In this document: positions 1 through 24,227 of the stretch, in pieces
Layout: every line of letters begins with the position of its first letter
How positions within the stretch are numbered: the first letter of the stretch is position 1
From: Polyangiaceae bacterium
Lineage (GTDB): Bacteria; Myxococcota_A; Polyangia; Polyangiales; Polyangiaceae
Assembly (NCBI GenBank): GCA_033763455.1
Contig: JANRKO010000078.1
Location: 1-25,342, forward strand
DNA length: 25,342 nt
Direction of reading: 5' to 3'
Notes under the pieces: generated by a model
Seen by the model: only the letters and a program-made list of their open reading frames with translations
Databases searched by the model: none
Told to the model about the DNA's origin: nothing
Position numbers and translations under genes: made by a program

Positions 1-138
1 CACCATTTGGCCAAGACCTGCGCGATGTTTCCTCCGAACGCAATTCCAATAAACACAAACCGAAGAGCCGGATGCGGGAAATTCGCAAGTCCGGTTCTGT
101 AAGGAGCACCGGGTGGCAACACCCGGTGTTTACTTGAT
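1..138 (+). mobile_element. 3' end of a group II intron (end of domain IV, domain V, domain VI, 3' splice site ...GAT), truncated by the window edge
   Basis: 65-97 GAGCCGGATGCGGGAAATTCGCAAGTCCGGTTC matches the domain V consensus, with AGC triad at 66-68, a 9-bp lower stem, a 2-nt bulge at 87-88 and a GAAA-containing loop. 100-136 folds into a domain VI hairpin with a GCAA tetraloop (116-119) and a single bulged A132, 7 nt from a terminal AT (137-138). Confidence 0.92.
2..52 (+). CDS. Possible C-terminal tail of the intron-encoded reverse transcriptase/maturase (…TIWPRPARCFLRTQFQ*), partial
   Basis: This frame is open from the window edge to TAA at 50-52, 12 nt before domain V, where IEP ORFs usually end. 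Only 16 codons are visible, so identity is inferred from position. Confidence 0.4.
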   Translation, partial: TIWPRPARCFLRTQFQ

Positions 139-157
139 GAACTTTGGGGTCCCCAGC

Positions 158-1687
158 ATGAAAATCCAGCTCAAGAACCTTGTAGCCTTTGTCACTCTCA
201 TTTTCGCCGCTGTCGCCGCAGACGGCTGCGGGAAGAACTTCGACAACTGCGCGGAAACGTATACGTGCCCCCCTAAGGCGGCCACGGGCAGGACGAATCC
301 GACTGGAGCGGGAGGGTCAGCGGGCACTGCAGGCTTAGCTTCCCTACCCACAGGGGGCACAAGTTCGAAGCCATCGGTGGGGGGCTCAGCGGGCACCGAG
401 GCAGTCGACGTTGGAGGCCCAGGCGGCACAACGGGGATGGCGGGAGCACCGGCGGTCGCGCCCATTGGAATTCTCGGTGAAGCGTGCGCGCCAAACGGCG
501 CGTATGCATGCGCGGGTGTCGCCCAGAAGGGAAAGCTGATCTGTCAGGGCGGCCATTGGGCCTCCAATGGCACCTGCGACGGCCCGAGCAACTGCGATAC
601 TTCGGCGATCAATCTCGGTTCGTGCCAAGCAATTGTTCCAGAATGTGCTGGAAAGGCCCCCGGGGCGCTCAGCTGCCAAACCAACAACGTGATCCAATGC
701 GGCACCGATCTTGTTTCCTCTACGTCCGTAAAGACATGTGCTTCGCCGACTCCACTCTGCAGCGCGGGAGCATGCGTCACCCCGAGCTGCGACGGACTGC
801 CGAACAACTGCGGACCCATGGGAAATGAGAGCTGCTGCGAAAGCCCGCTGGTTGAGGGCGGTACATTCAACCGTGGCAACGCCACGGATGGCACAGCTAC
901 CGTGAGTGCCTTCCGCCTGGACAAGTACGAGATCACTGTCGGGCGATTTCGCAAGTTTGTTGACGCTTGGATCGCGGGTTGGCGTCCCGCGGCGGGAGCA
1001 GGCAAGCACGCGCACCTGAATAACGGCAGCGGCCTGGTTCAGCTCACTGGAACACTCGGGTCGAGCGCTACGCCCGCCACGGCCGGCGCGTTTGAACCGG
1101 GGTGGGACGCAGCTTGGGCAGCCAATATCGCGGGCACTCAGAGCGGTTGGAATGCGAACCTCTCCTGTGATGCGACCCACCAAACTTGGTCGATCACCCC
1201 CTCGCTCGAAACACTGCCGATTAACTGCGCGAGCTGGTATGAACTTGAAGCGTTTTGCATTTGGGATGGAGGGTTCATTCCGACCGAAGCTGAGTGGAGC
1301 TTCGCAGCTGTGGGCGGGAACTCTCAACGCGCTTACCCATGGGGCGCAGACGCGCCTGATGCGAGCCACGCCATTTATAACTGTAACTATAGTGGGCGTG
1401 TTTCTTGCGACCTTGCGCCGGTGGGTTCAGCCTCTTTGGGAAATGGAAAGTATGGACAGGCTGATCTTGCGGGGAATCTTAGGGAGTGGACATGGGACTT
1501 CCGCCAGGCGTTTATGTACACGGAGTGCTCATGCAGTGACTTCGTCGAGCGCAGGACTGCTTCAGCTGGCGTCCTTGCGCTAGGCGGAGACTATAACGAC
1601 ACACAGGTGCCGTATTCGGACCACTTCGGCTACGTTGAGTCCAGCCGAAACAGCTATGTGGGTGCCCGTTGCGCCCGAATTCCCTAG
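158..1687 (+). CDS. Secreted/lipoprotein-like Cys-rich protein with C-terminal SUMF1/FGE-sulfatase (C-type lectin fold) domain
   Basis: MKIQLKNLVAFVTLIFAAVAADGC signal-like N-terminus, Gly/Thr/Ala linker and Cys-rich repeats. FGE motifs follow: VEGGTFNRG, FRLDKYEITVGRF, PINCASW, PTEAEW, YPWG, DLAGNLREW, GARCAR. Start moved to ATG158 because the ORF-track start (113) lies inside intron domain VI. Confidence 0.88.
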   Translation: MKIQLKNLVAFVTLIFAAVAADGCGKNFDNCAETYTCPPKAATGRTNPTGAGGSAGTAGLASLPTGGTSSKPSVGGSAGTEAVDVGGPGGTTGMAGAPAVAPIGILGEACAPNGAYACAGVAQKGKLICQGGHWASNGTCDGPSNCDTSAINLGSCQAIVPECAGKAPGALSCQTNNVIQCGTDLVSSTSVKTCASPTPLCSAGACVTPSCDGLPNNCGPMGNESCCESPLVEGGTFNRGNATDGTATVSAFRLDKYEITVGRFRKFVDAWIAGWRPAAGAGKHAHLNNGSGLVQLTGTLGSSATPATAGAFEPGWDAAWAANIAGTQSGWNANLSCDATHQTWSITPSLETLPINCASWYELEAFCIWDGGFIPTEAEWSFAAVGGNSQRAYPWGADAPDASHAIYNCNYSGRVSCDLAPVGSASLGNGKYGQADLAGNLREWTWDFRQAFMYTECSCSDFVERRTASAGVLALGGDYNDTQVPYSDHFGYVESSRNSYVGARCARIP

Positions 1688-1726: not shown

Positions 1727-3268
1727 CTAAGAGCGAAAGCTTCCCTGACGGCGCCGCCCCGCGAACGCTGCTAGCCATACTGAGGCCATACCGAAGGTCA
1801 ACATCGAGTTCCCGGATGGATCGGTACCAGCCAGACTACAGCCTGATGAGTTCCTGGTAGTGCCCGGAGTATTGGCGGCCGGCACACTCCCCGCGCCACC
1901 ACTGGTCGACGGCTTGGCACCGCCGCTGCCCGAGGAAGCGCCCCCTGCCGCGGCGGGCCTGCCACCAGCGCTTGGAGGAAACGGATTGGGATTCGAAGCT
2001 CCACCCGAATTGCTTGCTCCACCTAAACCTGAACTCGCACCACCGGTCGCAGTGGCACCACCCGTTCCGCTGGAAGCACCGCCGGTGCTTCCAACTGGCG
2101 GAACATACGGAGTGTAAGGCATGAGCTCAGCGCCAGCTGGCAACGGGGAATCACCCACTTTGAAAGGCGCCGCGTGATACACGATCACCTCGTTTCCCCC
2201 GACGCTCGAATGAGCAGCCGCAATGACGATCGCACTCGAGGTCAGTGTGAATGGCCCCGCATATTGCGTGCCCACATGAGTGACAGGGTTGGGAATCGTC
2301 CCGTTGGTGGTGTAGTAGACCGAGTCGGATTGAGGAGTGGTGGTCAAGGTCACCGTCACACTCGGACCGGCCAGCTCCCCGCCCTCTGGAGAAAATGTGA
2401 GCGGTGAAGCCGACGTTGCCGGTACCCCGCGACGTTGCGCAAACATCCACGGTACAAATCCCTCATCAGAGGCAAGGTACATTCCAGTTCCGTGCCCACC
2501 CGCTACGGCCTCGGTGTAGTAGGGGCGTCCACCGGCCTTCGCGAGGGTCTCGAACATGAGCCTATCGCTCGCAACAGGAACCCCCGTGTCGCCGGCCGCA
2601 TGGAAAGACCACACCGCCATGTTCTTCATACTAGACGCCGCCTGGGGAGAACCTCCACCGTCGGCCGGAACGCCTGCCGCAAAGAAATTAGGAGTGCGCG
2701 CAATCATGTCCCATGCGCCAAAGCCACCCATTGAAACGCCCGTTACGTAGATTCGGTCGGGATCGATGTTCGGGTACTGCGCCTGGAGGGACTGGATCAT
2801 TGCGCGAGTAGTCTGAAGCGTTTTGGACTCCCCCAACGTCGTGATGTCATAAGAATCAACGTTCGCCCAATCCCACAGCACGAAGGACGCGGAGTTCGGG
2901 TTCTCGCTGAGCGTGTTGTCACAATTGGGTGCCCTGGGCGCCATTACGTACGCCGGGTAAGCGGTGCGATTATCCATGACCTCCTGCAACTGACACGTGT
3001 AGCCGTCGTCAACTTGCCATTTGAAGTTAGCATCTTGCCCCTGCGCACAACCCACGGACGCGCCCGCCCCATGCAGGAAGATCACCAAGGGGTACTTGGT
3101 GTTCGGATCATTGGTTGGTGGCTCCCAATATGCGCAAAACATGCCATCTCGAGTGCACTCTTTGGTGCTGGCATCTGAAAGGGAACGACTCCCATCACAC
3201 GCAGCTTGCGCAGCGCCAGCGGCACCAACAGAAGCCAAAACCAACAGGCTGGTAAGTAGCAAACGCAT
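1727..3268 (-). CDS. Secreted alpha/beta-hydrolase (predicted esterase/peptidase) with chitobiase-C/Fn3-associated-like domain and MYXO-CTERM-like anchor, paralog 2
   Basis: GGAG RBS before ATG3268 and a signal peptide (MRLLLTSLLVLASVGAAGAAQA). Hydrolase motifs: YPLVIFLHGAG, DPDRIYVTGVSMGG nucleophile elbow, candidate Asp (HAAGD) and His (GGHG). Accessory domain FSPEGG...YYTTNGTIP...YAGPFTL, then a Gly/Ser linker and an SSGCS + hydrophobic + RRR tail. Confidence 0.85.
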   Translation of the reverse strand: MRLLLTSLLVLASVGAAGAAQAACDGSRSLSDASTKECTRDGMFCAYWEPPTNDPNTKYPLVIFLHGAGASVGCAQGQDANFKWQVDDGYTCQLQEVMDNRTAYPAYVMAPRAPNCDNTLSENPNSASFVLWDWANVDSYDITTLGESKTLQTTRAMIQSLQAQYPNIDPDRIYVTGVSMGGFGAWDMIARTPNFFAAGVPADGGGSPQAASSMKNMAVWSFHAAGDTGVPVASDRLMFETLAKAGGRPYYTEAVAGGHGTGMYLASDEGFVPWMFAQRRGVPATSASPLTFSPEGGELAGPSVTVTLTTTPQSDSVYYTTNGTIPNPVTHVGTQYAGPFTLTSSAIVIAAAHSSVGGNEVIVYHAAPFKVGDSPLPAGAELMPYTPYVPPVGSTGGASSGTGGATATGGASSGLGGASNSGGASNPNPFPPSAGGRPAAAGGASSGSGGAKPSTSGGAGSVPAANTPGTTRNSSGCSLAGTDPSGNSMLTFGMASVWLAAFAGRRRQGSFRS

Positions 3269-3463
3269 CTGAGACTCCGTAGGAATAGGAAGCAGGAGAT
3301 TGAAACCAACGCACGCGAGTTCGAAGGCTCCGGTGACAGTGCTCGGTACCCTACGGGCGCGAACGCTCGCTGTCCCGAAGTTTGTTCGGATACGCGGCTT
3401 CACTCGGGAAAACGAGATTGCTCTGCGCAAGGGCACTCTCGTGGTCAATGCGGTAAGACGTTG

Positions 3464-4930
3464 CTAGGAGCGCGAGCTGCGGTTACGGCGCCGTGAAGCA
3501 AACGCCGCTACAGCAACCGAGGCCAAGCCGAAGCTCAACAGCGAGTTCCCTGACTGATTGGTACTAGCCAGGCTGCATCCTGACGACTTGGTAGTACCCG
3601 CAGGCCTGACGACCGCCGGGATGCTCGCTGCGCCACCACTGGTTGACGGCTTGGTGCCGCCGCTTCCCGAGGAAGCAGGAGCACCACCTGTTGCGGCGCG
3701 AGCGCCGCCAGCGGCAGGAGGAAACGGATTCGCCACTCCGCCTGAGTTGCTGCTCGCACCGCCAGCTCCGCTCGAAGCGCCACCAGGCGGTACATACGGA
3801 GTGTACGGCATGAGCTCAGCACCGGCCGGCAAAGGCGAATCACCCACCTTAAAGGGTGCAGCGTGGAATACGTTCATATCCGTCCCCTCAACATTATGGT
3901 GGGCTGCGGCGATAACGACAGCGCTCGCGCTCAGCGTGAAAGGAGCTGTGTACTTGGTGCCCACGTGGGTGATCGCGTTAGGGATACTCCCATCGGTGGT
4001 GTAGTAGATCGAATCCGACTGTGGCGTAGCGCTCAGGCTAACGGTGACGGTGGGGCCATCCAACTGCCCGCCCTCCGGAGAGAATACCAACCACGGTGCA
4101 GGTGTGGAGGGAACTCCCCGGCGCTGTGCAAACATCCACGGCACGAAACCCATTGAGGCCGAGAGACCCATTCCTAGGCCATGGCTACTGCTAACGGCCT
4201 CGGTATAGTAAGGCCGCCCGCCGGCTCTGGCTACTGCCGCAAACGTTTCTTGGTCCCCAATTGCCGACACCTGGTCTTGATCGTCGTGCTCAGCCCAGAT
4301 GGCCATGTTTTTAAGGCTGGGTGCAGCCTGTGGGGAGCCCCCGCCCTCAGCGGGAACACCAGCTGCGAAGAGATCGGGTGTCCTTGAAATAAGGTCCCAG
4401 GTGCCGTAGCCACCCATCGACACTCCGACCACATAGATACGATCGGGATCGATATTGGCGTACTGCGTCTGCAGGGCCTGCATCATGGCACGCGCTGTGA
4501 TTAATGTCTGAGACTCGGCAAGCGTGGTGATATTGTAGGTTGCATCTGAGGTACCCCAATCCCAGTGGACAAACGCTCCACCTTGAAGGCCGGTGTCGTA
4601 GTTCGGAGCCCGCGGGGCCATGATGTACGCAGGGTACGTCGTGCGGTTTTCGATTAACTCCTGCAACTGACACGTCCAACCGTCGTCTACTTGTTGCGTG
4701 TTGTTGTTCGTCCCAGACGCACCAGCCCCGTGCAAGAAAATAACCAGTGGATACTTCGTGTTCGGATCGTTCGTCGCCGGTTCCCAATACCCACACTTCA
4801 TGCCATCTCGACTACAATCCTTGTAGTTCGCGTCGGACAACTTTGGGACACCCCCTTCACACACCGCCTGCGCGGCTCCCGTCGCAACAACTACAGCCAA
4901 CCCAAACAAGCTCGTGAACAAAAGACGCAT
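3464..4930 (-). CDS. Secreted alpha/beta-hydrolase (predicted esterase/peptidase) with chitobiase-C/Fn3-associated-like domain and MYXO-CTERM-like anchor, paralog 1
   Basis: AAGGAG RBS before ATG4930. Same architecture and motifs as the neighbour: YPLVIFLHGAG, GVSMGG, YYTTDGSIP, SSGCS...RRRNR. Confidence 0.85.
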   Translation of the reverse strand: MRLLFTSLFGLAVVVATGAAQAVCEGGVPKLSDANYKDCSRDGMKCGYWEPATNDPNTKYPLVIFLHGAGASGTNNNTQQVDDGWTCQLQELIENRTTYPAYIMAPRAPNYDTGLQGGAFVHWDWGTSDATYNITTLAESQTLITARAMMQALQTQYANIDPDRIYVVGVSMGGYGTWDLISRTPDLFAAGVPAEGGGSPQAAPSLKNMAIWAEHDDQDQVSAIGDQETFAAVARAGGRPYYTEAVSSSHGLGMGLSASMGFVPWMFAQRRGVPSTPAPWLVFSPEGGQLDGPTVTVSLSATPQSDSIYYTTDGSIPNAITHVGTKYTAPFTLSASAVVIAAAHHNVEGTDMNVFHAAPFKVGDSPLPAGAELMPYTPYVPPGGASSGAGGASSNSGGVANPFPPAAGGARAATGGAPASSGSGGTKPSTSGGAASIPAVVRPAGTTKSSGCSLASTNQSGNSLLSFGLASVAVAAFASRRRNRSSRS

Positions 4931-5179
4931 AAGAGACTCCTTGAAACCTTGGACAGAAGGACAGAGAGGTACGGTCGCGGGCAGGTGGTGTAGCGCTTTG
5001 GGCGCCAGCCGCTGTGGCACTCTACGACGAAGTGGCGCAAAAGTCCCTCAAAATAGGGCTTACTCGCGATTCCTCTAGGCCCCAACTCTGCCGGCCGCTG
5101 CGGGAACACTACCAGCCCGTCCCTTTCGCGGCCCGCGCGTCCCCGCTGAGGTCACAAAGGAACCTGGTACACAGGCGTA

Positions 5180-19222: not shown

Positions 19223-19294
<72 letters not shown>

Positions 19295-24154: not shown

Positions 24155-24227
24155 GGGGCCGTAGCTCAGCTGGGAGAGCGCCTGCATGGCATGCAGGAGG
24201 TCAGGGGTTCGATCCCCCTCGGCTCCA
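24155..24227 (+). tRNA. tRNA-Ala(GGC)
   Basis: Acceptor stem GGGGCCG/CGGCTCC-A with G3:U70, D arm TAGCTCAGCTGGGAGAGC, anticodon arm CCTGC-ATGGCAT-GCAGG, T arm AGGGG-TTCGATC-CCCCT. CCA is not encoded. TAGATT followed by a GC-rich stretch lies upstream (24134-24150). Confidence 0.97.

Follow-up and report, generated by a model that had tools for sequence, protein, structure and literature searches.

Bacterial group II introns are thought to persist mainly through gene avoidance. In the yeast mitochondrial cox1 introns aI1 and aI2, the upstream exon and the intron protein form one in-frame fusion, from which the protein is later cut out. Class D (IIB3) introns of the RmInt1 type encode an RT-maturase without DNA-binding or endonuclease domains, are about 1.9 kb long, and reach high copy number. 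The literature compared comprised passages of PMC4424553, PMC7306698, PMC8919778, PMC3552965, and PMC12584367. In the compared part of Table S1 of PMC3552965, class D proteins are mostly 401-439 aa, Sr.me.I1 is assigned to class D with a 419-aa protein, and the named class D introns are mostly located in transposases or non-coding DNA. Group IIC introns target transcription terminators, according to the excerpted text of PMC12584367. The same excerpt describes a IIB1 clade at start and stop codons (Michel et al. 2007), in which groEL introns interrupt the stop codon after its second base and turn it into another stop codon. Every member of that clade has a CL1-lineage RT and, close to its 5' end, a subdomain Ia of 300-700 nt; these introns are large, EcKTE56.groEL measuring 3228 nt.

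The window, which is the whole stretch of 25,342 nt that was analysed, belongs to a Polyangiales-type metagenome-assembled genome (MAG) of 92 contigs (184 contig ends) that is 93.7% complete. It begins inside a group II intron, and the features at this end are as follows.

1..138, + strand: last 138 nt of a group II intron; the same sequence is found at 14 contig ends
3..137, + strand: tail of the RT/maturase frame, 44 codons plus TGA at 135-137, running through domains V and VI; open frame that aligns with the C-terminus of the protein P0001
65..97, + strand: domain V, the catalytic helix (RF00029 alignment, MFE structure)
100..136, + strand: domain VI, a 16-pair helix with a GCAA loop and bulged A132 (sequence, MFE structure, RF00029 alignment)
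135..139, + strand: TGATG, in which the RT stop (135-137) overlaps by one base an ATG (137-139) made of two intron bases and exon base 139 (sequence)
139..1687, + strand: 3' exon, read in the frame of the junction ATG; its product is of secreted or lipoprotein-like type and has an FGE-sulfatase domain (Pfam PF03781, E 3.5e-29)

The first-pass annotation had placed an intact ribozyme 3' end here, with domain V pairing 65-73 with 89-97 and carrying an AGC triad and an AA bulge, and with domain VI pairing 100-115 with 120-136, bulging A132, closing on GCAA, and ending in AT. Each of these details was recovered from the sequence, the RF00029 alignment, and the MFE structure. In domain V, the triad is at 66-68, the bulge is at 87-88, and a G-U pair at 67/95, which is usual, is accompanied by another at 73/89. 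Three of the 16 pairs of domain VI are G-U, the loop occupies 116-119, and A132, the seventh nucleotide counted from the intron 3' end, is the presumed branch point; the last two intron bases are the AT at 137-138. The covariance-model search that the annotation had suggested was run, and the whole of Rfam model RF00029 (Intron_gpII, positions 1-77) matched the + strand at window 63-138 with 54.1 bits (E 3e-8), against a gathering score of 40 bits. The segment folds at an MFE of -44.2 kcal/mol versus a mean of -21.2 (sd 2.9) for 200 dinucleotide shuffles (z = -7.9), none of which folded as well (0/200). Window 63-138 is a genuine group II intron 3' end.

The first 139-140 nt of the window are found at 14 contig ends, of which 13 are 100% identical and one differs by a single mismatch, and these 14 are the only RF00029 matches in the whole genome. 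At 13 other contig ends, an identical stretch of 136-139 nt begins with GTGCG, the intron 5' end. Two of two tested 5' ends match positions 1-86 of RF02005 (the group II D1-D4 model), where they are cut by the contig end, with 45.7 and 43.9 bits (E 4.5e-11 and 1.7e-10; the full-length cut-off is 49). About 14 identical copies of one intron are present in this MAG, and the intron accounts for 27 of the 184 contig ends. Since the 14 3' ends and the 13 5' ends are all at contig ends, the contig break is explained as a collapsed repeat, and the remainder of the intron is unassembled because the contig begins within that repeat. Two contigs continue the 3'-end repeat 107 nt further upstream. The RT frame is assembled for its last 80 codons in this genome, its upstream continuation on contigs C77 and C21 reading ...ALYKWLNRRSQKRSFTWERF..., and the maturase domain PF08388 has no match anywhere in the 93.7%-complete assembly. 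A single metagenome scan with the exact 5' end gave a close relative (L108-L110) and not the interior of this genome's intron.

Full-length relatives measure 1.95 kb. In L027 and L109, RF02005 (109 and 111 bits), an RVT_1/YADD ORF, and RF00029 are all present, and the intron 3' end analysed here is identical to L109 at 217 of 245 nt and to L027 at 198 of 245 nt. The 484-aa protein of a relative gives RVT_1 only in Pfam (E 4.4e-39), with a YADD motif and no endonuclease domain. It ends about 55 codons past an X-domain-like ...WLNRRSQKRSFTWE..., and those codons come from the linker, domain V, and domain VI. The RT of the clade is 484-492 codons long, compared with the mostly shorter class D proteins. 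Over residues 32-429, the relative's protein shares 40.5% identity with that of a multicopy S. meliloti intron, which from its species, size, and copy number is probably RmInt1 (Sr.me.I1) itself. The relatives group as one clade with hosts among Myxococcota and Bdellovibrionota MAGs; the host labels are those of the MAG bins, and some rows may be wrong. In a quick tree search with a midpoint root, from which L027, L039, and L040 are absent, the 13 rows bearing the reading-frame trait described below form one clade (SH-aLRT 100). The sole class D reference in that tree (S. meliloti) is connected to the clade through a long branch that carries an unreliability flag, and the tree holds no references from classes E, F, or g1-g4.

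What the first-pass annotation had ventured about the element as a whole was borne out by these comparisons. A multicopy intron had been offered as a possible cause of the contig break, a GUGYG 5' end had been named as a feature to look for, and a resemblance to endonuclease-less classes had been tentatively suggested; the 14 contig-terminal 3' ends, the 13 GTGCG ends with their RF02005 matches, and the lone RVT_1 domain of a protein whose nearest named counterpart is that of the S. meliloti class D intron agree with all three. The upstream RT ORF with YADD that it expected was found in the full-length relatives L027 and L109, and the part of it assembled in this genome is the 80-codon tail. 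Its suggestion of a mobile retroelement agrees with the identical copies, with an intron-less allele at the window's own site, and with copies in other genes of a same-genus genome, which are described further below. The best explanation as a whole, to which fair confidence is attached, is a presumably active, endonuclease-less intron of about 1.95 kb that belongs to a distinct clade with RmInt1 (class D) as its nearest named relative, resides in start codons, and has frames laid out for passage of ribosomes.

The copies are inserted inside start codons. In this genome, the first base of the 3' exon is G in 14 of 14 cases, and the 5' exon ends in AT in 11 of 13 and in GT in 2 of 13, which places the intron between bases 2 and 3 of a start codon, in the sense orientation, between the T and G of ATG or GTG. 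The interrupted genes include those for fumarase, ZapA, a YrdC-type protein, and an EngB-type protein. ORFs in the junction frame span 15-574 aa and reach at least 100 aa in 8 of 14 cases, while the remaining two frames extend to maxima of 53 and 176 codons; the window's own junction ORF is 137..1687 (516 aa). Pfam domains begin at profile position 1-2 in 8 of the 12 junction ORFs scanned (position 8 for the window's FGE-sulfatase domain), and in five of the ORFs (fumarase, Sua5/YrdC, ZapA, GTPase, and response regulator) the domain sets in at residues 5-31. Six of the 14 junction ORFs are short (15-69 aa), and the four of these that were scanned gave no Pfam match. Empty-site evidence was drawn from the fumarase copy and from a metagenome contig. 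In two same-genus genomes, the ATG start of the fumarase orthologue falls at the junction ATG in the alignment, and the DNA upstream of it matches the 5' exon on C53. A search of 40 relatives for the window's FGE-sulfatase gene gave paralogues of the domain and no clean ortholog. Among the relatives of the intron, the junction codon is ATG in 14 of 16 loci, and the 5' exon ends in AT in 11 of 13 and in GT in 1 of 13 of those with at least two visible bases; the exceptions in the clade are L031 (junction ATC), L035 (ATA, with 5' exon CG), and L109 (5' exon GA).

The guide that would select such sites is very short. A hairpin loop in domain I of the clade carries a conserved (G/U)UAUG, and in 12 of 12 anchored members this loop forms 3-6 contiguous pairs with the exon, the first of them at exon position -1. 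Loop and exon covary, with AUA facing exon UAU in L038 and UCGC facing exon GCGA in the retargeted L109. The 5'-AUG-3' of the EBS1 loop would pair with C-A/G-U at exon positions -3 to -1, and one more intron base presumably pairs with the first exon G. For this genome's intron, EBS1, the RT core, and the 5' frame past codon 47 are inferred from relatives whose ends share 81-95% identity with it.

The reading frames of the clade are arranged around the same two junctions. A short PRP-containing ORF tail noted in the first-pass annotation proved to lie in frame 2, which is closed by stops. The real RT/maturase frame is frame 3 (3-137), which matches the C-terminus of the relatives' RT, passes through domain V, and ends at TGA (135-137). 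In 16 of 16 lineage loci, the RT stop occupies intron positions -3 to -1, and a UGAUG or UAAUG overlap is found in 14 of 16. In all 57 of 57 loci outside the clade in which domains V and VI were located, the RT stop is 80-292 nt further upstream, including the S. meliloti class D intron, in which the protein stops 95 nt before the intron end. At the other side, 9 of 13 members have a 5' junction frame that runs open for 147-172 codons until the RT start, other frames reaching 58 codons at most; it is closed early in the remaining four (85 codons in L030, 45 in L036, 47 in L045, and 19 in L035). Over 420 nt, 9 of 12 members have no stops (shuffle P 0.0006-0.015 each), and a stop-free frame was found in 0 of 12 outgroup introns. 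A hairpin with UAA and the RT AUG is kept in the clade and is absent outside it. Relative to the RNA alignment, the phase of the 5' frame drifts, and yet the frame remains open, which needs selection. Neither the insertion inside start codons nor this reading-frame layout had been noticed in the first-pass annotation.

Set against the described systems, the clade shares features with several. With class D, it shares an RT and X region without a D/En region (RVT_1 only), a length near 1.9 kb, and high copy number. It departs from class D in that the ORF is not confined to domain IV with a stop before domain V, and in that the insertions are in start codons rather than mostly in transposases or non-coding DNA (Table S1 of PMC3552965, compared part). 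Class g2 was considered and excluded, since g2 has a FADD motif and the clade has YADD. As in the IIB1 start/stop-codon clade, insertion is at the initiation codon of housekeeping genes, between codon bases 2 and 3; here the start codon is rebuilt, whereas in groEL the stop codon is changed (PMC12584367, excerpt). The start-codon clade nevertheless differs from that IIB1 clade. Subdomain Ia is absent, since in L027 and L109 no more than 56-57 nt separate the 5' splice site from the RF02005 match; the 5' splice site is about 500 nt from the RT start; and the nearest named protein is class D. A frame relay is not mentioned for the IIB1 clade in the excerpted text of PMC12584367. With group IIC, the likeness consists of the missing endonuclease domain, the very short EBS1-IBS1 pairing, the lack of an evident EBS2, and a target set by a feature of gene architecture instead of a long sequence (as far as the excerpt of PMC12584367 goes). 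Group IIC introns insert after terminator hairpins or in attC, outside genes, whereas the sites here are start codons next to a promoter-like motif and the RNA matches RF02005. An upstream hairpin was found at 1 of 13 5' exons (C51). Entry of translation into the intron from the upstream exon's frame would recall aI1 and aI2, unlike which two stop-start overlaps part the 5' frame, the RT, and the host protein. Literature searches turned up neither an RT frame extending across domains V-VI nor a frame free of stops over domains I-III, and they gave no account of the present clade at start codons; Michel et al. 2007 or Simon et al. 2008 may mention them. The terms "start codon" and "initiation codon" are absent from the compared passages of PMC4424553.

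The insertion sites also share a motif, T followed after 17 nt by TGnTAGRGG, 6-9 nt ahead of the start codon. In 12 of 13 sites (background 9.7%), a TA precedes the junction by 14-17 nt, and 11 of 12 have T at -23 from the motif TA (background 20%). The relaxed motif was defined and tested on the same sites, and the P values are inflated for that reason. The TAG of the motif was also considered as the stop codon of an upstream gene; this was rejected, as it closes frames of 0-91 codons only. A view of the motif as a general feature of gene starts was weakly supported, CTAG being no more than weakly tied to ORF starts genome-wide (1.3-1.4 fold).

These patterns might arise if an ordinary RmInt1-like intron with the very short guide C-A-U|G inserted widely and the start-codon copies survived as the least harmful, their ATG being rebuilt. 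The open frames would then be tolerated by-products without function, and the upstream motif would mark genes that tolerate insertion. A guide of 3-4 pairs should indeed hit many sites, copies at non-start sites are known from L031, L035, and L109, and the six short junction ORFs of this genome are compatible with such hits. Yet this genome holds no internal C-A-T-G copy, all 13 5' exons and all 14 3' exons fitting a start codon, and the TA that marks 12 of its 13 sites was seen in 9.7% of random [AG]TG sites. The RT-stop and open-frame traits are clade-wide and were absent from 57 and 12 outgroup loci, respectively, and a 5' frame kept open through phase drift implies selection. Survivorship is accordingly regarded as an unlikely origin of the pattern.

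The motif is read here as the gene's own promoter, a reading to which several observations point. Members in AT-rich hosts carry -10-like hexamers in place of CTAG, and in L109 a promoter scanner gave TTTACA-18-AAGAAT ending 9 nt ahead of the intron. If the motif is the promoter, the targets would be leaderless or nearly so, and the RNA 5' exon would be a few bases only. The intron RNP might instead recognise the motif itself as a DNA signal, by means of the RT or of a second exon-binding site, in which case the genes need not be leaderless. The Ll.LtrB protein reads the distal 5' exon. Such a signal would fit the strong enrichment of the motif at the sites, the rarity of CTAG in the genome (10,520 observed versus about 23,900 expected), and the failure of a strict sigma-70 criterion, by which a promoter was called at 0 of 13 sites of this genome and at 2 of 25 lineage sites. 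Against direct reading, the spacing from motif to junction varies over 14-17 nt, and the distance to the conserved T, about 37-40 nt further upstream than the junction, is long for an RNP that has no DNA-binding domain. A search for a complement of the motif that could serve as EBS2, made over the first 560 nt of the closest full-length relative, gave none. The hexamers of AT-rich hosts replace CTAG, and L109, although retargeted, is still 9 nt downstream of a good promoter. Recognition of the motif by the RNP is judged quite improbable.

The frame layout suggests a translational relay; both this function and the manner of target finding are deduced from the arrangement of the sites and frames. 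The host start codon is preserved at the 5' junction as AU plus intron G1 and opens the stop-free frame over domains I-III. This frame ends at the UAA in the conserved hairpin, at or just ahead of the RT start codon. The RT frame then crosses domains V and VI to a UGA/UAA stop that overlaps the AUG rebuilt from two intron bases and the exon G. By termination-reinitiation at both overlaps, the RT could be made from a transcript beginning at the host start codon, and the host protein could be made even when the RNA is unspliced. Such a relay would explain the tolerated insertions in housekeeping genes. Ribosomes on a ribozyme would unfold the RNA, in conflict with splicing.

A bolder version, put forward tentatively and considered rather doubtful, is that the clade is specialised for the extreme 5' end of leaderless transcripts, with an anticodon-like guide of 3-4 nt, targets found through exposure of the sense (non-template) strand in the promoter open complex, and a translationally transparent intron. 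Ribosomes would load on the 5'-terminal AUG, cross the ribozyme, restart on the RT, cross domains V and VI, and start once more at the host gene. If true, neither splicing nor a ribosome-binding site would be required to make the RT and the host protein, and in the L109 variant the intron would provide the host gene's only AUG. The clade can be read as a design made of a start-codon guide, a conserved promoter-like context, and a chain of frames that would express parasite and host from the unspliced transcript. A working relay would be a new way for a retroelement to sit harmlessly in essential genes, would bear on how translation is reconciled with ribozyme folding, and would offer a compact, endonuclease-free intron with predictable landing at gene starts.

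The long 5' frame could also be thought to encode a functional protein of its own, about 150 aa from the ribozyme region, as 147-172 codons without a stop in 9 of 13 members might suggest. This is highly improbable: about 22 alignment columns per codon position hold phase in eight members, the closest relative L109 is in a different phase at the 5' end, and the third-position excess is absent (0.26/0.38/0.31 versus 0.36/0.26/0.61 for the RT). As judged from these alignments, the 5' frame is not a conserved protein.

That the window holds a dead relic fragment, as its 138 nt and the lack of any assembled maturase domain in the genome might imply, has next to no probability given the collapsed-repeat signature of 14 identical 3' ends and 13 identical 5' ends, the intact full-length relatives, and a presence/absence polymorphism at the window's very site. 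The intron-less allele was found in a soil metagenome (run X1), in a contig that passes from the end of C88 straight into the window sequence from 138 on. The empty site reads ...CTCGT|GAAC..., and the start codon of the FGE-sulfatase gene there is GTG. The same-genus genome G001 has four intron copies in other genes, all with G at +1.

The first-pass annotation had placed domains V and VI of a group II intron at the window start, and Rfam model RF00029 matched there over its full length at 54.1 bits (gathering score 40, E 3e-8). The same stretch gave the expected two-hairpin fold with an energy of -44.2 kcal/mol (shuffle mean -21.2, sd 2.9), a value equaled by 0/200 shuffles. The described domain V and VI pairings, AGC triad, AA bulge, GCAA loop, bulged A132, and terminal AT were all present in the sequence; the intron finding is real and its first interpretation right. 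The ORF tail containing PRP was misassigned, as it lies in a closed frame; the frame of the intron-encoded reverse transcriptase/maturase (RT) is window frame 3, which continues past the start of domain V.

Window 63-138 (+): intron domains V and VI (RF00029)
Window 3-137, frame 3: tail of the RT/maturase frame

The metagenome assembled genome (MAG) comprises 92 contigs (6.56 Mb, 93.7% complete), and contig C78 begins with the window. The first 139-140 nt of the window were repeated at 14 contig ends (13 identical, contig C21 with one mismatch), exactly the ends carrying the 14 RF00029 matches of the genome. Clustering of all contig ends gave 13 others sharing an identical 136-139 nt beginning GTGCG, and both of the two tested matched RF02005 (group II D1-D4-6) at positions 1-86, cut by the contig end. 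The suspected multicopy intron behind the contig break was thus confirmed, with all 14 3' ends and 13 5' ends at contig ends. The proposed upstream search succeeded for the GTGCG 5' ends and the in-frame RT tail, which two contigs extend 107 nt further inward as maturase-like ALYKWLNRRSQKRSFTWERF; the maturase domain itself was found in none of the assembled contigs of this MAG, from which the intron interior is absent, and a metagenome scan for that interior returned a close relative only. Besides the intron, at least 10 further repeat families of 4-11 members each lie at contig ends of this MAG, including 11-, 8-, and 7-member sets with IS-like ends; because so many repeat families end contigs, the genome seems rich in mobile elements.

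Mobile, multicopy, and endonuclease-less, this group II intron sits between the second and third bases of start codons and rebuilds AUG at both junctions. In this genome, the first base of the 3' exon was G in 14/14 copies and the last base of the 5' exon was T in 13/13 (11 AT, 2 GT), so the empty site reads A/G-T^G (caret, insertion point). The frame starting at the junction ATG was open for 15-574 codons across the 14 copies (at least 100 aa in 8/14), and the maxima in the other two frames were 53 and 176 codons. Pfam domains were present in 8 of the 12 junction ORFs scanned (the two shortest were omitted), with no match for the other 4, and the matches start at profile position 1-2, except 8 for the window FGE-sulfatase gene. 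The domain begins at residues 5-31 in five (fumarase, Sua5/YrdC, ZapA, EngB-type GTPase, and response regulator); the remaining matched ORFs are a sulfatase, a DUF5122 protein, and the window FGE-sulfatase gene. Two empty sites were recovered. The fumarase genes of the same-genus genomes G001 and G002 begin ...ACATG CCC ACC..CGC ATT GAA, their ATG aligning with the junction ATG of C21 and their upstream DNA matching the 5' exon on contig C53. The other, at the site of the window copy, is seen in a 240-nt contig from soil-metagenome run X1 that spans window 138-301; its upstream part equals the last 30 nt of the 5' exon on contig C88 before the final T, giving an intron-less allele ...CTCGT^GAAC... 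with a GTG start. G001 carries four copies in four other genes, none common with this genome, with G at +1 in all and junction ORFs of 80-617 aa. Behind window position 142, a contig from sediment-metagenome run X2 links the intron 3' end to a 3' exon absent from this genome, which suggests more insertion sites in related populations.

A full-length relative was obtained by exact domain V search as an internal copy in another Polyangiaceae MAG (L027), with the layout RF02005 (109 bits), a 484-codon ORF (RVT_1, YADD), and RF00029. Pfam gave no domain beyond RVT_1 in this protein, in agreement with the endonuclease-less type first proposed. Two metagenome contigs (L109 and L110) carry a 1,953-nt intron matching this genome's intron ends at 132/139 and 217/245. 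Using the L027 protein as query, 80 of 194 confirmed loci were retained; among these, loci at 47-73% identity came from MAGs labeled Myxococcota, Bdellovibrionota/Oligoflexia, and a few odd bins, and loci at 35-42% came from many phyla and were used as the outgroup, both sets matching RF02005. The junction codon in relatives was ATG in 14/16 (L031, ATC; L035, ATA), the junction ORF was long or open in 10/13 assessable relatives, and of the 13 5' exons showing two or more bases, 11 ended in AT, one in GT, and one in CG. The atypically sited intron of L035, in a Myxococcales MAG, lies ~660 nt upstream of a tmRNA gene (3614-3974, minus strand, 181.6 bits).

The RT frame of the lineage stops (TGA/TAA) at intron positions -3 to -1 in all 16 loci with a mapped 3' end and overlaps the junction codon as UGAUG or UAAUG in 14 of them. 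In the outgroup, the RT stop lies 80-292 nt upstream of the intron end, before domain V, in 20/20 closely examined loci, and likewise upstream in 57/57 loci with located domains V and VI, which include the Sinorhizobium meliloti class D intron and several copies from one genome; the first exon base is unconstrained. A Terriglobia MAG in the outgroup holds eight copies of an ordinary intron (L052-L059; RT stop 105-116 nt before the intron end) whose junction codons happen to read ATG, so a junction ATG alone is not diagnostic. In a quick, midpoint-rooted IQ-TREE search, from which 15 near-duplicates and every row <400 aa were omitted, the 13 rows with the RT stop at the intron end formed one clade (SH-aLRT 100, branch 0.88) apart from 38 other RF02005-type proteins, and by this tree the trait appears to have arisen once.

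On the 5' side, the frame set by the host start codon (AT or GT from the exon, G1 from the intron) was open for 147-172 codons in 9/13 members, the exceptions being L030 (85 codons), L036 (45), L045 (47), and L035, whose insertion is not in a start codon; the other two frames reached at most 58 codons. The first 420 nt of this frame held no stops in 9/12 members (shuffle P 0.0006-0.015 each), and it was open (47 codons) over the first 139 nt of this genome's own intron. No stop-free frame was found in 12 outgroup introns with a recognizable 5' end, whose junction frame has 2-12 stops. The stop that closes the 5' frame is the UAA in a conserved hairpin absent from outgroup introns (..GAAGUGGGGUAAYGCCC/AUGGAGCGAAGG); in five members an AUG overlaps this UAA (UAAUG), and in the rest the conserved RT AUG follows 5 nt after it. 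The stop-start overlaps are specific to the clade. A conserved protein in the 5' frame was considered and rejected: a single phase is kept across eight members at only ~22 columns for each codon position, with no third-position excess (0.26/0.38/0.31 vs. 0.36/0.26/0.61 in the RT). Judged from sequence, the conserved trait is the openness of the frame, in the phase set by the start codon. We infer a translational relay across the intron into the host gene, in which ribosomes would start at the kept host start codon, cross domains I-III, and end at the hairpin UAA, then reinitiate on the RT, pass through domains V-VI, and terminate at UGA/UAA, and finally reinitiate on the host gene. With these steps, unspliced RNA could yield both the RT and the host protein, so that intron insertion into housekeeping genes would be tolerated.

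A domain I hairpin loop reading (G/U)UAUG in 12/13 aligned full-length members (UUAUA in L038) was taken as the putative guide site EBS1, in which 5'-AUG-3' would pair with exon positions -3 to -1; its U opposite -2 takes A or G, which fits ATG and GTG starts. Pairing ran for 3-6 contiguous pairs from -1 in 12/12 anchorable members. The assignment is supported by covariation, with loop AUA facing exon ..UAU in L038, UCGC facing a 5' exon end of GCGA in L109, and, at the fourth position, A opposite U or C opposite G in seven members. The L109 intron (86-2038; also L110) has no start codon at that exon end, its open 5' frame begins on a GUG belonging to the intron itself and runs for 165 codons, and its 3' junction forms ATG followed by a long ORF (MAFQIDTDGL...), whose only nearby in-frame start is the AUG to which the intron contributes its final two bases. 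With both EBS1 and 5' exon changed, L109 is therefore a retargeted variant of the same intron. A second site (EBS2) was not found when sought in the closest full-length relative.

Upstream of the junction, TA occurred 14-17 nt away in 12/13 5' exons of this genome (9.7% at random [AG]TG sites), mostly within (T)G-C-T-A-G-R-G-G. CTAG is rare in this genome. T was found at -23 from that TA in 11/12 (background 20%), the place of the first -35 hexamer base given a 17-nt spacer, and TGn precedes TA at four sites. TAGRRT-type hexamers were ~2-fold enriched 6-12 nt ahead of long-ORF starts. A promoter scanner gave TTTACA-18-AAGAAT ending 9 nt before the intron in L109, and L037 has TTGACC-17-TATTAT upstream. 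The TAG was rejected as a stop codon of the preceding gene, as it closes no upstream genes. A strict sigma-70 rule was satisfied at 0/13 sites in this genome and 2/25 overall (background 0.05%), and the relaxed motif was defined on the very sites tested; for these reasons, we hold the motif to be the target gene's promoter with slightly better than even confidence. If so, the RNA 5' exon would be only ~2-5 nt long, which would suit a short guide and the lack of EBS2. For targeting we favor, as a speculation, that the intron reverse-splices into the sense strand where this is exposed close to the transcription start; the sense orientation of all copies and the varying motif spacing would agree with such a route.

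Among named introns, the class D intron of S. meliloti is closest (~40% identity), a proximity and not a class assignment, and the usual class D confinement of the ORF to domain IV does not hold in this clade. The specialized IIB1 start/stop-codon clade described in PMC12584367 (Avi.groEL and EcKTE56.groEL) is likewise tied to such codons and also inserts after the second codon base, before the third. The 300-700 nt subdomain Ia that defines it is missing from the present introns, and its RNA and RT probably represent another lineage. No description of the frame architecture was found in the literature covered by the searches and reading. The element is a new form of group II intron of unusual and testable design.

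Other window features were as follows.

Window 19223-19294 (+): tRNA gene (Rfam tRNA, 68.9 bits)
Window 24155-24227 (+): tRNA gene (Rfam tRNA, 63.7 bits)
Window 1727-3448 and 3464-5020 (-): adjacent paralogues of 573 and 518 aa, secreted esterase-like proteins

Both paralogues have a Gly/Ser-rich C-terminal region followed by a hydrophobic tail with Cys and then RRR, a pattern reminiscent of a myxobacterial C-terminal sorting signal.
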